DNA from: Eledone cirrhosa
Lineage: Eukaryota
Length of the DNA: 64,000 nt
NCBI GenBank assembly: GCA_964016885.1
Contig: OZ024740.1
Location: 139,562,001 to 139,626,000 of the forward strand
Direction: 5' to 3'
This document shows positions 18,208 to 24,648 of the stretch, one piece after another (the first letter of the stretch is position 1; each line of letters begins with the position of its first letter). The translations under genes were made by a program, and so were the position numbers. Under the pieces are notes generated by a model. The model made no database searches. It was not told the origin of the DNA and saw only the letters and a list, made by a program, of their open reading frames with translations.

Positions 18208-19895
18208 TTGGAATAAATGCTCTGAAATAGCGATATATATGTGAATATAGACATAGAATATTCGAAAATATTCTGTATGTTTATAATAAACATTTTGAAG
18301 ACCTAATCGCTATAGAATAGAATACGTCACGTATTACAATTAGATTCTCGATAAAAGCAAGGGAAGTAATCTACGCGTTTCATTCTCGTTAGAAATCATC
18401 AGGACTACATATCCAGTGCTTTTATCGAGAATGACACAGCTAGAGACTTATAGAATACTTAGCTGTGTACAGGAACTGGTTTGAAAGAGCGGTTGCCGGT
18501 CCGGCAGAAATTAGAAATTGGAATAAATGCTCTGAAATAGCGATATATATGTGAATATAGACATAAAATATTCGAAAATATTCTGTATGTTTATAATAAA
18601 CATTTTGAAGACCTAATCGCTATAGAATAGAATACGTCACGTATTACAATTAGATTCTCGATAAAAGCAAGGGAAGTAATCTACGCGTTTCATTCTCGTT
18701 AGAAATCATCAGGACTACATATCCAGTGCTTTTATCGAGAATGACACAGCTAGAGACTTATAGAATACTTAGCTGTGTACAGCTGTGCACTGGATATGTA
18801 GTCCTGATGATTTCTAACGAGAATGAAACGCGTAGATTACTTCCCTTGCTTTTATCGAGAATCTAATTGTAATACGTGACGTATTCTATTCTATAGCGAT
18901 TAGGTCTTCAAAATGTTTATTATAAACATACAGAATATTTTCGAATATTCTATGTCTATATTCACATATATATCGCTATTTCAGAGCATTTATTCCAATT
19001 TCTAATTTCTGCCGGACCGGCAACCGCTCTTTCAAACCAGTTCCTGTACACAGCTAAGTATTCTATAAGTCTCTAGCTGTGTCATTCTCGATAAAAGCAC
19101 TGGATATGTAGTCCTGATGATTTCTAACGAGAATGAAACGCGTAGATTACTTCCCTTGCTTTTATCGAGAATCTAATTGTAATACGTGACGTATTCTATT
19201 CTATAGCGATTAGGTCTTCAAAATGTTTATTATAAACATACAGAATATTTTCGAATATTCTATGTCTATATTCACATATATATCGCTATTTCAGAGCATT
19301 TATTCCAATTTCTAATTTCTGCCGGACCGGCAACCGCTCTTTCAAACCAGTTCCTGTACACAGCTAAGTATTCTATAAGTCTCTAGCTGTGTCATTCTCG
19401 ATAAAAGCACTGGATATGTAGTCCTGATGATTTCTAACGAGAATGAAACGCGTAGATTACTTCCCTTGCTTTTATCGAGAATCTAATTGTAATACGTGAC
19501 GTATTCTATTCTATAGCGATTAGGTCTTCAAAATGTTTATTATAAACATACAGAATATTTTCGAATATTCTATGTCTATATTCACATATATATCGCTATT
19601 TCAGAGCATTTATTCCAATTTCTAATTTCTGCCGGACCGGCAACCGCTCTTTCAAACCAGTTCCTGTACACAGCTAAGTATTCTATAAGTCTCTAGCTGT
19701 GTCATTCTCGATAAAAGCACTGGATATGTAGTCCTGATGATTTCTAACGAGAATGAAACGCGTAGATTACTTCCCTTGCTTTTATCGAGAATCTAATTGT
19801 AATACGTGACGTATTCTATTCTATAGCGATTAGGTCTTCAAAATGTTTATTATAAACATACAGAATATTTTCGAATATTCTATGTCTATATTCAC
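18208..19895. mobile_element. Hammerhead-ribozyme tandem array 1: 310-bp units in two head-to-head arms (retrozyme-like), inserted in (TA)n
   Basis: CTGATGA cores at 18804, 19114, 19424 and 19734 on + give a period of 310. Two more on - lie at 18366-18408 and 18676-18718. Inversion junction ~18782. Confidence 0.92.
18798..18840 (+). ncRNA. Type I hammerhead ribozyme (representative of 6 copies in array 1)
   Basis: gtagtc-CTGATGA-t[ttct aacg agaa]t-GAAA-cgcg-TA-gattac. Stem I gtagtc/gattac, palindromic stem III, predicted cleavage after 18834. Confidence 0.88.
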
Positions 19896-20193
19896 ATATA
19901 TATATATATATATATATATATATATATATATATATATAGTACGTTATTCCGGGTTGAATCGGAGGTAACCACAGTAAGTAAGGTACTCAATACATAGCAG
20001 AGTATGATTTCTAATGAATGAAACAGTTCTAGTCCTGTAGAATCTCATCTATATTAAAACTATATATATATATATATATATATATATATATATATATATA
20101 TATATATATATATATATATATAGAGAGAGAGAGAGAGAGAGAGAGAGAGAGAGAGAGAAATATACACGGTGTGTATGATTGTGTATAGAAGAT

Positions 20194-20437
20194 TATATTA
20201 ATAAAAGGAATTCCAACTTTATCTGATTTACTCGTTTTATTTACAATCCTTTAAAATTTATAATGGTATTAGAATGAAATAGTATGGTAGAATATTAAAT
20301 TTTAAGTATTAATGGTCAATTAACACTTAAAATTTAATATTCTACCATACTATTTCATTCTAATACCATTATAAATTTTAAAGGATTGTAAATAAAACGA
20401 GTAAATCAGATAAAGTTGGAATTCCTTTTATTAATAT
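20194..20437. repeat. Near-perfect ~245-bp palindrome ending in (TA)n
   Basis: tattaataaaaggaattccaactttatctg... / ...cagataaagttggaattccttttattaata, centre ~20315. Confidence 0.9.
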
Positions 20438-21361
20438 ATATATATATATATATATATATATATATATATATATATATATATATATATATATATATATTGG
20501 GGAGGGATATGTGTATATGTGTGAGTGCATGCCAGCGCACACACATATACATATACAAGCATCTCAACAAACTGACACGCATTACACATACACAAATTAG
20601 CATTCACCGCTAAGGTCGTATGACTATTCATAAAACATCTGACAGTTATAAATGTACTGAGACAACAGAGGTGAGCCTGTATCCTAAGTGGAATCGTGGG
20701 ATGTATGTGTTTGTAGTGATGAGTGGACAGATGCAGTTTATAGAAATAGGTGACAGCTGAAAGGCTAGTAGTGTGACAGTGGTTATCTCTGGTCAATATT
20801 GAATTATCTTGGAGTAGGGCAATATAAGGAGTTATGGGAAAATTGCAAGAGGTCGAGCCAGCGGTGAAATAGTAAGAGGTTTTTTTTCACTCCAAAGTCG
20901 GTCAATTTTCTGGTGATGAAGTGGGCTAGGGCGGGTTTTAGGTTCCGCTATACGGAAGACTGGACACAAAGAAATACAAGAAAATATAAGGTCCTGGACA
21001 ACTATAACGTTTATGAGGAGAGGGACAGACATACACACATATATATATATATATATATATATATATATATATATATGATATATATGTATATGAGGAGGTG
21101 TGGGTTGGGGTGGGTGCGTGTGTGCGTGTGTGTATGTATGCATATAATATATATATATATAAATGTGTATCCCGGGTTCAATCGGAGGTACTCAATACGT
21201 AGTAGTGTATAAATGTTTAATATAGAAAACAAGAAGCCATTCCTATATTAAATTGTCCTTAACACTATGACTTATTAAAATAATATAAACAACTCACTAT
21301 CCGGATGGCTTCCAAAAATAATGGTTGCATTTAAATAGGTACGTAAAACTGTTATATATTG

Positions 21362-21989: not shown

Positions 21990-22368
21990 ATGGTGGTTGC
22001 CAACTCGTTTTCGAGTACGGCCACTACTTTATATCCATGTAACCCCTACCGATGCGCTGAACGAGTGTGACTTTTTAGTCCAGCCAGCGACTTGAAAACT
22101 CTGATACAAACACTACACTTGTGACAATTATTGACACAGTGCTGGGCCCATGGTACGGTACCATGTGACGACAAGTGCAGAGAGATCTCCAGATATAAAG
22201 CAATGCCTGTGCCTTGAAGCTTTTATAGTCAGCAAAGGCACTGCACAAAGCCAGTCCCACTCTCTTAACCAAGATGATATTTACCAAAAAGAAGAACAAG
22301 TCAACATCATTGGATACCATCCGAGTTGCAGGTGTTATATCAGAGCTTTCCTTCTAGAATTCTGCCTT
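21990..22368 (-). mobile_element. Non-autonomous RTE-derived element, 5'-truncated copy
   Basis: High identity to 31050-31640, 33597-34205 and 53752-54262. Confidence 0.75.
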
Positions 22369-22642
22369 ATACATATATATATATAAATGTATATATTATA
22401 TATATATATATTGTATATATATGTGTGTGTGTGTATACATTCATTCTTATAGTAATTTATTTTTTACTGGTTATGGAACTTTTGTCGATCCGCTGAATTT
22501 TCCGACAGAGTATATGCTCATTACCGGACTAAACACGAGAAACAATTTATAGACAGATGGCATATATTAACAAACACAAGTTCAAATACAATCACATACT
22601 CCACCCTCAATATATATATATATATATATATATATATATATA

Positions 22643-24648
22643 TTGGAATAAATGCTCTGAAATAGCGATATATATGTGAATATAGACATAGAATATTCGA
22701 AAATATTCTGTATGTTTATAATAAACATTTTGAAGACCTAATCGCTATAGAATAGAATACGTCACGTATTACAATTAGATTCTCGATAAAAGCAAGGGAA
22801 GTAATCTACGCGTTTCATTCTTGTTAGAATTCATCAGGACTACATATCCAGTGCTTTTATCGAGAATGACACAGCTAGAGACTTATAGAATACTTAGCTG
22901 TGTACAGGAACTGGTTTGAAAGAGCGGTTGCCGGTCCGGCAGAAATTAGAAATTGGAATAAATGCTCTGAAATAGCGATATATATGTGAATATAGACATA
23001 GAATATTCGAAAATATTCTGTATGTTTATAATAAACATTTTGAAGACCTAATCGCTATAGAATAGAATACGTCACGTATTACAATTAGATTCTCGATAAA
23101 AGCAAGGGAAGTAATCTACGCGTTTCATTCTTGTTAGAATTCATCAGGACTACATATCCAGTGCTTTTATCGAGAATGACACAGCTAGAGACTTATAGAA
23201 TACTTAGCTGTGTACAGGAACTGGTTTGAAAGAGCGGTTGCCGGTCCGGCAGAAATTAGAAATTGGAATAAATGCTCTGAAATAGCGATATATATGTGAA
23301 TATAGACATAGAATATTCGAAAATATTCTGTATGTTTATAATAAACATTTTGAAGACCTAATCGCTATAGAATAGAATACGTCACGTATTACAATTAGAT
23401 TCTCGATAAAAGCAAGGGAAGTAATCTACGCGTTTCATTCTTGTTAGAATTCATCAGGACTACATATCCAGTGCTTTTATCGAGAATGACACAGCTAGAG
23501 ACTTATAGAATACTTAGCTGTGTACAGGAACTGGTTTGAAAGAGCGGTTGCCGGTCCGGCAGAAATTAGAAATTGGAATAAATGCTCTGAAATAGCGATA
23601 TATATGTGAATATAGACATAGAATATTCGAAAATATTCTGTATGTTTATAATAAACATTTTGAAGACCTAATCGCTAAACATACAGAATATTTTCGAATA
23701 TTCTATGTCTATATTCACATATATATCGCTATTTCAGAGCATTTATTCCAATTTCTAATTTCTGCCGGACCGGCAACCGCTCTTTCAAACCAGTTCCTGT
23801 ACACAGCTAAGTATTCTATAAGTCTCTAGCTGTGTCATTCTCGATAAAAGCACTGGATATGTAGTCCTGATGAATTCTAACAAGAATGAAACGCGTAGAT
23901 TACTTCCCTTGCTTTTATCGAGAATCTAATTGTAATACGTGACGTATTCTATTCTATAGCGATTAGGTCTTCAAAATGTTTATTATAAACATACAGAATA
24001 TTTTCGAATATTCTATGTCTATATTCACATATATATCGCTATTTCAGAGCATTTATTCCAATTTCTAATTTCTGCCGGACCGGCAACCGCTCTTTCAAAC
24101 CAGTTCCTGTACACAGCTAAGTATTCTATAAGTCTCTAGCTGTGTCATTCTCGATAAAAGCACTGGATATGTAGTCCTGATGAATTCTAACAAGAATGAA
24201 ACGCGTAGATTACTTCCCTTGCTTTTATCGAGAATCTAATTGTAATACGTGACGTATTCTATTCTATAGCGATTAGGTCTTCAAAATGTTTATTATAAAC
24301 ATACAGAATATTTTCGAATATTCTATGTCTATATTCACATATATATCGCTATTTCAGAGCATTTATTCCAATTTCTAATTTCTGCCGGACCGGCAACCGC
24401 TCTTTCAAACCAGTTCCTGTACACAGCTAAGTATTCTATAAGTCTCTAGCTGTGTCATTCTCGATAAAAGCACTGGATATGTAGTCCTGATGAATTCTAA
24501 CAAGAATGAAACGCGTAGATTACTTCCCTTGCTTTTATCGAGAATCTAATTGTAATACGTGACGTATTCTATTCTATAGCGATTAGGTCTTCAAAATGTT
24601 TATTATAAACATACAGAATATTTTCGAATATTCTATGTCTATATTCAC
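22643..24648. mobile_element. Hammerhead-ribozyme tandem array 2: 310-bp units in two head-to-head arms, inserted in (TA)n
   Basis: HHRs on - at 22801, 23111 and 23421; on + at 23861, 24171 and 24481. Junction ~23677. Same outer ends as array 1. Confidence 0.92.
23861..23903 (+). ncRNA. Type I hammerhead ribozyme (representative of 6 copies in array 2)
   Basis: gtagtc-CTGATGA-attct aaca agaat-GAAA-cgcg-TA-gattac. Perfect 5-bp stem II, predicted cleavage after 23897. Confidence 0.9.

Follow-up and report, generated by a model that had tools for sequence, protein, structure and literature searches.

The window analysed in the present study, a 64,000-nucleotide stretch of Eledone cirrhosa DNA, contains two tandem arrays of a 310-nt unit with a predicted hammerhead ribozyme, each consisting of two arms joined head-to-head within (TA)n. 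Because they have different fixed haplotypes and different junctions, arrays 1 and 2 are two independent insertions of a genome-wide family. The anatomy of the insertions, with head-to-head arms, (TA)n targets, a tail and inner ends joined through microhomology, is the published signature of PLEs (Penelope-like elements), and thus the family is most likely a non-LTR (long terminal repeat) retrozyme mobilized by a PLE; that it is a non-autonomous hammerhead element moved by PLE machinery we regard as highly probable. The two arms are usually multimers, and the variants peculiar to an array run through all of its units in either arm, suggesting copying from one monomer, as rolling-circle reverse transcription predicts; a monomer, circular or nicked, was probably the template in most of the insertions.

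Anatomy of the insertions and the link to PLEs

Unit positions are numbered from the first base after the predicted cut (position 1 is window 19145). In insertion 1, the left (TA)n target (18168..18208) leads into a tail arm of 1.9 units on the minus strand (18207..18782; hammerhead cores at 18402 and 18712) with its outer end at unit position 165. A 4-nt insert (18783..18786) between unit positions 210 and 263 forms the inner junction with a short-end arm of 3.6 units on the plus strand (18787..19903; four cores at 18804, 19114, 19424 and 19734), the outer end of which lies at approximately unit position 130–139 and merges into the right (TA)n target (19896..19938). Insertion 2 lies between (TA)n targets at 22610..22643 and 24649..24711 and consists of a tail arm of 3.3 units on the minus strand (22642..23677; outer end at unit position 165; cores at 22837, 23147 and 23457) and a short-end arm of 3.2 units on the plus strand (23676..24656; cores at 23867, 24177 and 24487), joined through ~2 nt of microhomology as judged by eye. 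Its haplotype, 287A/295A, differs from array 1 in all of the examined units of both arms, and the 2.7 kb separating the two arrays consists of other repeats. The sequence-only reading had counted two minus-strand and four plus-strand hammerheads in array 1 and three of each in array 2, and the motif scan returned exactly these 12 cores. The 310-bp period that it gave was recovered in all four arms using Tandem Repeats Finder, its predicted cuts after 18834, 19144, 19454 and 19764 agreed with the motif analysis, and the pure (TA)n flanks were present at all four outer ends. It had also described the arrays as non-coding, and no ORF (open reading frame) of at least 150 amino acids in the ORF list of the window overlaps either of them.

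The family comprises about 1,800 insertions dispersed over many contigs. The following counts come from pattern searches of the 3.0-Gb assembly, the first contig of which is 443 Mb. A 19-nt hammerhead motif had 12,741 exact copies compared with 0 for its reversed control, so the motif is not a chance match. Exact junctions numbered 1,061 for tail/(TA) and 1,164 for short-end/(TA), and over the initial 222 Mb of contig C1 a listed short end lay head-to-head with 55 of the 86 tail ends; the number of insertions follows from this pairing together with the junction counts. The genome-wide search with flanks, arms and junctions that had been proposed was thus run, and the sampled loci were tabulated. 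At 310 nt, 35% GC and non-coding, the unit fits the 170–400 nt, low-GC description of retrozymes, and the genome owes ~4 Mb of long inverted repeats to the family (12,741 units × 310 nt).

Insertion anatomy was analysed in 71 loci, of which 13 were picked by the motif, 56 by the tail end and two came from the window. Sixty were simple two-arm insertions, and the other 11 comprised one complex locus, six that were single-armed or nearly so, two cut by gaps and two in which the small arm was missed by the filter. Thirteen loci taken in chromosome order consisted of ten two-armed loci, two single-armed loci and one cut by an assembly gap, and all ten unselected two-arm loci had one outer end at ~130–139 and the other at 163–170. 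The same held for the complete two-arm loci (56/56 with one end at ≤139 and one at 163–170), most of which had been picked by the tail end, so that there only the second end is informative. The tail therefore measures 26 to ~40 nt and is present at one end only. A TA-rich flank, impure in some cases, was found at the outer ends of 13/13 unselected loci, and any target-site duplication is masked by (TA)n on both sides.

The inner ends behaved differently from the fixed outer ends. They were uniform round the unit (Rayleigh p ~0.10) and not enriched at the cut (4/120 within 3 nt, 2.7 expected), and the two inner ends of a locus were unrelated to each other (5/60 within 15 nt, 6 expected). Microhomology of at least 2 nt was found at 32 of the 46 insert-free junctions compared with 19% expected, although BLAST over-extension inflates some of the lengths (window array 2 scored 15 nt, compared with the ~2 nt seen by eye), which tells against our reading. 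The remaining 14 of the 60 junctions contained short inserts, often local copies. Arm lengths fitted an exponential (Kolmogorov–Smirnov p 0.43), with means of 6.0 units for the tail arm and 4.0 for the short arm and a maximum of 45; 83 of the 112 arms had at least two units, as did both arms in 35 of the 56 complete loci. Because the inner ends are random and unrelated, two independently primed cDNAs fit better than fold-back self-priming, and a fold-back artefact is disfavoured. Fold-back self-priming was rejected on this ground, only L080 being a near-perfect palindrome. The end pairs and junctions thus bear out the proposed priming from both strands of the (TA)n target followed by a head-to-head join. 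Arms that seemed to start exactly at the cut (L063 and L068) were considered as evidence for a linear monomer and rejected as a reference edge artefact.

This anatomy is alike to that of EN+ PLEs (Penelope/Poseidon, Neptune and Naiad), whose insertions are described as carrying an inverted 5′-truncated copy, a tail of 30–40 bp at one end and a (TA)n bias (PMC8557442), with head-to-head as the commonest arrangement (PMC3846280). Microhomology junctions, two RT (reverse transcriptase) start sites downstream of the hammerhead and a short palindromic stem III are also shared (PMC11167929, PMC6765202). The PLE protein has been reported to cut and extend both strands, with two internal RNA start sites defining the tail (PMC11167929). 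The retrozyme identity and PLE link put forward in the sequence-only reading are therefore supported by sequence features as well as insertion anatomy. The 310-nt family differs from EN+ PLEs in that it has no ORF and both of its arms are multimers of one unit; a 310-nt unit that is itself an autonomous PLE was ruled out, as there is no RT plus GIY-YIG ORF in the unit. Moreover, its inner ends are random and not palindromic, a pattern more easily reconciled with two-strand priming than with the self-priming put forward in PMC3846280.

The window itself contains a PLE at 48232–50085 on the plus strand, with a pLTR (pseudo-LTR) extending to ~50765. It encodes an RT (PF00078), a CxxC-type linker and, at the C terminus, a GIY-YIG domain (PF01541), with one in-frame stop, and has a degenerate minimal hammerhead near 50480. 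This PLE family has at least 108 copies with 93–96% protein identity, several of them with inverted arms, a ~45-nt tail and (TA)n ends as in the 310-nt family, which speaks for the PLE link, and the homologues of the window copy are RT/GIY-YIG relatives of at most 45% identity. The 310-nt unit bears no relation to the pLTR of this family, and the upstream starts of these pLTRs did not cluster at the hammerhead (1/9 exact). PLE-like ORFs of several further families lie beside arrays (L041, L042, L044, L047, L060, L067, L069, L070, L078 and L079); the one at L044 has a long near-identical inverted arm, and Pfam was mostly blank across the flanking PLE-like ORFs.

A sister family (5,263 motif matches) has a unit of ~320 nt that is alignable along the 310-nt unit. 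The ‘tail’ segment between the two fixed outer-end sites (unit positions 140–165; 19284..19309, plus strand) holds a 17-nt motif common to both families. Directly 5′ of the two sites lies a hairpin (19242..19261, plus strand), a candidate RT recognition element, in which two of the eight pairs change on both sides relative to the sister family and 97.7% of cells pair; 0/500 shuffles scored as high for covariation, the sequences compared being related. The hammerhead stems of the sister family differ yet pair, and some copies carry U3/A8 instead of C3/G8. As a separate observation, the sister family (L114–L143, L038:4380–4720 and L074) is older, and its insertions, which share the tail site, are for the most part short, with one arm or two.

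The hammerhead unit, its template and its A>G substitutions

The type I hammerhead at 19108..19150 (plus strand; motif and fold) has a stem I of 6 bp, the core CUGAUGA...GAAA and a GUA triplet. Its stem II is 4 bp with a U–U mismatch at the base in array 1 and 5 bp in the 287A haplotype, and its stem III in the monomer is a palindrome of 2 bp with a 2-nt loop. Since stem III is only 2 bp and palindromic, the ribozyme is probably dimer-dependent, as judged from its sequence; a short palindromic stem III is typical of PLE hammerheads, which usually need dimers (PMC6765202). The type I core and stems I–III were found in every unit. The ‘full type-I hammerhead’ claimed for each unit accordingly stands as to core and stems, and has to be qualified for the 2-bp stem III of the monomer and the U–U mismatch in stem II of array 1. 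Array-fixed variants within the ribozyme were located at N7, in loop 2, at the stem II base or, preserving pairing, in stem I, and the core was spared. The cut-to-cut monomer (19145..19454, plus strand), a putative circRNA (circular RNA) that was folded as a circle, had a circular MFE (minimum free energy) of −67.8 kcal/mol (z −4.2 compared with 100 shuffles), and the ribozyme region was also more structured than shuffles (z −5.4). A plant-type LTR retrozyme, which has a type III hammerhead in its LTRs and a monomer of 600–1000 nt, was ruled out by the type I topology and the 310-nt tandem units.

Variants were called in 102 loci and 837 units, including 63 unselected arrays of at least three units; L164–L169 are duplicates of earlier arrays, and 10–25 nt at the arm ends were trimmed before calling. 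The unselected arrays had 29 haplotypes, 21 of which were seen once, and sporadic substitutions occurred at 0.03% per base. In 11 arrays a private variant was present in all of the units examined, and in most of these arrays it extended across both arms. For example, a private 2-nt deletion was present in 22/22 units of one array, and private substitutions were fixed in 20/20, 18/18 and 14/14 units of others. Sporadic variants comprised 87 singletons and 16 partial entries in eight loci, and just two of them, among 59, recurred in more than one locus. The single-monomer template that had been proposed is thus supported in most of the insertions by array-fixed haplotypes. A cleaved linear monomer copied once was ruled out, as the arms run over the cut site hundreds of times and no scar is left there. 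We also noticed that three of the four fixed indel types are array-fixed 1-base insertions 2–5 nt downstream of the predicted cut (L031, L037, L069, L079, L161, L075, L152 and L187), possibly reflecting RT slippage near the ligation junction or tolerated stem I bulges.

Fixed and sporadic substitutions also differed in type. A>G on the ribozyme strand accounted for 12 of the 33 fixed substitution types compared with 6 of the 87 sporadic ones (p 2e-4), and the enrichment was retained without sites 276 and 2 (p 1e-3). All 12 fixed A>G sites were at A–U pairs of the fold, with a mean pairing probability of 0.97 compared with 0.61 for all A residues. C>U at C–G pairs was found at 1/34 sites, compared with 12/56 for A>G (p 0.015 at equal rates), and since such changes are equally wobble-forming, tolerance of G–U pairs alone is a poor explanation of the A>G excess. 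G276, G20 and G259 recur on seven, four and three backgrounds respectively, and none of them was found sporadically among 669, 799 and 779 other unit copies. G276, which is present in the terminal unit of 55 arrays genome-wide, was all-or-none, as A276 units were absent from all 24 of the loci chosen for carrying it. The sequence context of site 276 is UAG, the preferred ADAR triplet. These patterns in the DNA make it reasonably likely that the A>G marks represent A-to-I editing of the folded monomer that was copied into DNA, the alternative being recombination between templates plus selection. As the fold is the same in a circle and in adjoining units of a multimer, pairing cannot choose between the two templates; the all-or-none pattern does.

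Proposed mechanism and rival explanations

The explanation that we favour, and consider rather likely as a whole, is a young non-autonomous Penelope-type retroelement (non-LTR retrozyme) acting in six steps. Tandem copies would be transcribed and the hammerheads, probably as dimers, would release monomers of 310 nt, to be closed into circles by ligation or kept together at their ends, as expected from the family. A PLE RT/GIY-YIG protein acting in trans, suggested by PLE biochemistry, would cut both strands of (TA)n, and cDNA would be primed from each strand at two fixed RNA sites, ~130–139 and ~163–170, matching the observed outer ends. Both RTs would travel round one and the same monomer, each making a random number of turns, the circle being proposed from the arm lengths and fixed variants that are observed. 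The two cDNAs would stop at unrelated places and be joined head-to-head by microhomology-mediated end joining, in keeping with the junction pattern observed. A-to-I edits in the template may be the cause of the marks seen in every unit of both arms, and a few long arms have expanded later by local duplication, as their repeated variant patterns show.

Several observations weigh against this scheme. For the ribozyme, Rfam gave no hammerhead match at the gathering threshold in the whole window, and at E≤10 its 17 matches on 18700–20200 included no hammerhead family; the Rfam check proposed in the sequence-only reading therefore came back negative, although an Rfam match is not defining in the cited retrozyme papers, which use motif descriptors. 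The MFE structure of the monomer partly mispairs the hammerhead core. Ribozyme cleavage was reported not to be needed by a PLE, for which unprocessed RNA is the main template (PMC11167929), and in a preprint one of nine retrozyme dimers was cleaved (bioRxiv 10.64898/2026.07.22.740005). With regard to the enzyme, no autonomous PLE sharing the unit sequence was found in the PLE family of the window, among other PLE ORFs of the flanks, by a motif-variant pattern or with an nhmmer profile, which together covered <1 Mb of 3 Gb. As for editing, the preference for a 5′ U/A neighbour that ADAR should produce was not significant (p 0.28), and the polarity of the changes was set by the array-1 haplotype; if site 295 is reversed it becomes an A>G at an unpaired site and p is then 0.013. 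Finally, some arrays depart from uniformity. In L151 the two outermost units of each arm carry haplotype X and the units further in carry Y, as would be expected of a linear mosaic multimer or if the centre had been replaced later. In L059 the outer four units of the tail arm have A276 and the remaining nine G276; if the scheme is true, this locus records an edit made during insertion, tail arm first. One sporadic variant is common to the two arms of L049, and likewise one in L187, while later duplication has left recurring patterns of variants in L072 (45 units), L049 and L048. These mosaics, shared variants and duplications suggest that a number of insertions were copied from multimers, changed template or were reworked. 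Origin from one monomer is probable for most insertions; the two mosaic arrays L059 and L151 fit a pure one-circle origin only with an extra step.

The same two-arm PLE insertion could usually have copied an uncleaved linear multimer from a homogeneous array, with occasional monomer bottlenecks and a weak or dispensable ribozyme. The symmetry of L151 and the cross-arm variants in L049 and L187 are readily accommodated in this way, as are the marginal stem III, the Rfam miss and the use of unprocessed RNA as the main PLE substrate (PMC11167929), and the lack of an inner-end pile-up at the cut fits uncleaved RNA as well as a circle. Linear multimers from a homogeneous source can account for uniform arrays, but leave unexplained why new fixed haplotypes arise so often: 21 of the 63 unselected arrays have a haplotype seen once and fixed array-wide, so that the bottleneck would be needed very often. 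Hot-spot A>G changes were never sporadic, compared with ~35 expected if the units of a multimer were hit independently, and the near-absence of sporadic variants shared between loci points the same way. We therefore consider a usual multimeric template unlikely. A cleaved, unligated monomer would be a nicked circle in function if stem I together with the long closing stem kept its ends in place while the RT jumped from the 5′ end to its own 3′ end. Such a template accounts equally well for the array-fixed variants, and three of the four fixed indel types lie within 5 nt of the cut. The cut-site junction is nevertheless exact, and it does not vary within arrays although it is crossed several hundred times. 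End-to-end jumps by R2-type RTs usually add variable bases. Moreover, related retrozymes are described as mostly circular in vivo (PMC7229834), and taken with the exact junction this leaves the nicked monomer very unlikely.

Amplification at the DNA level would dispense with a special template altogether: short PLE-type insertions would have grown later by slippage, unequal exchange and gene conversion, and the A>G excess would reflect selection for G–U-tolerant stems plus recombination. The higher-order patterns in L072, L049 and L048 agree with such growth, and local amplification of PLE termini has been proposed (bioRxiv 10.64898/2026.07.22.740005). However, both inverted arms would have to expand independently yet share private variants, with at least two units in each arm in 35/56 loci, sporadic variants are mostly single (87 singletons), and C>U at C–G pairs is rare although it should be tolerated too, which renders amplification of this kind highly improbable. 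Hardly credible is an assembly or library artefact made by fold-back chimeric reads. Inverted repeats within (TA)n pose difficulties for assembly, and 3/71 loci have N gaps, but the outer ends differ in a fixed manner, the inner ends are unrelated and the flanks are not mirrored; in addition, there are ~1,100 junctions of each kind, and the unit is listed in six public runs from four studies; no RNA run appears in that listing, a blank that does not count as evidence.

On balance we prefer the rolling-circle scheme, and its strongest form, put forward tentatively, is that each insertion could record one circular ribozyme RNA that a PLE enzyme reverse-transcribed starting at the two ends of a DNA break, with A-to-I edits of the circle becoming heritable alleles in every unit and driving the sequence evolution of the family. 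Whether retrozyme circles are the retrotransposition template is hypothesized and left open in PMC7229834, and how PLEs make tandem, inverted insertions is stated as open in PMC8557442 and PMC11167929. If true, the scheme would provide genomic proof of rolling-circle retrotransposition and explain the inverted and tailed structure of PLEs by two-strand priming. With ~1,800 very young insertions that are multimeric in both arms, template identity, synthesis order and junction repair become readable from sequence, and if the A>G marks are editing, they would reveal a way in which RNA editing can lead to heritable changes in DNA.

Relation to known elements and neighbouring repeats

Metazoan non-LTR retrozymes (PMC7229834) are likewise non-coding, low-GC tandem repeats of 170–400 nt with one type I hammerhead per unit, ranging from dimers to large multimers. 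As circRNA-templated synthesis of tandem cDNA by PLE or LINE (long interspersed nuclear element) RT has been proposed for them (PMC7229834), circle-templated tandem cDNA is an already published retrozyme model and not a novelty of this family. Cleavage and circRNA have been demonstrated for those retrozymes, whereas both are predicted for the 310-nt family. The main text of PMC7229834 does not contain ‘inverted’, ‘microsatellite’ or ‘target site’ and has no mention of head-to-head or tailed insertions, whereas the 310-nt insertions are two-armed and tailed and their array-fixed haplotypes speak directly to the nature of the template. Animal retrozymes have also been presented as non-autonomous PLEs (bioRxiv 10.64898/2026.07.22.740005), with a similar PLE link, unit lengths and copy numbers. 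The case made in that preprint is built on co-occurrence and on similarity of pLTRs, chiefly in vertebrates, and local amplification is preferred; ‘tail’, ‘head-to-head’ and molluscs do not appear in its text. Chlamys PLEs such as MRC1 (PMC8557442) are from green algae and most are described as being without canonical hammerheads; for them an autonomous partner of similar sequence is known, in contrast with the 310-nt family, for which none was found in the <1 Mb covered. The sequence-only reading overstated the novelty of a bidirectional, microsatellite-targeted form, since inverted, tailed, (TA)n anatomy is standard for PLEs (PMC8557442, PMC3846280, PMC11167929). Judged by titles and abstract openings, the literature searches, which took in cephalopods, gave nothing on multimeric two-arm retrozyme arrays or editing marks, although supplements or subscription papers may contain them. 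What is new compared with the published descriptions found is that both arms are usually multimers, that variants are array-fixed and that there is an A>G signature.

The genome seems crowded with hammerhead-bearing elements. A perfect palindrome with 195-bp arms and a hammerhead on each arm lies in (TA)n at 62113–62502, with a related copy near 21370; it belongs to another family and contrasts with the 310-nt family and its random inner ends. Short copies of a further hammerhead family, the stem II of which resembles that of the 310-nt unit, adjoin both arrays (19940–20060, 24790–24980 and 21170–21230), and a head-to-head copy of this short family is present at L124. Hammerhead-like cores at 26689, 45866, 46891, 57740 and 60969 belong to at least four other repeat families within the 64 kb. 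Between microsatellites at 20194–20438 is a palindrome with 120-bp arms and a 5-nt loop, in which the motif scan detected no hammerhead core. Elsewhere in the window, a 14-bp minisatellite occupies 12364–14512 (153 copies, 96% matches), and non-LTR retrotransposon RT and endonuclease fragments were recognized by eye in the translations at 36275–38224 and 28211–29447.

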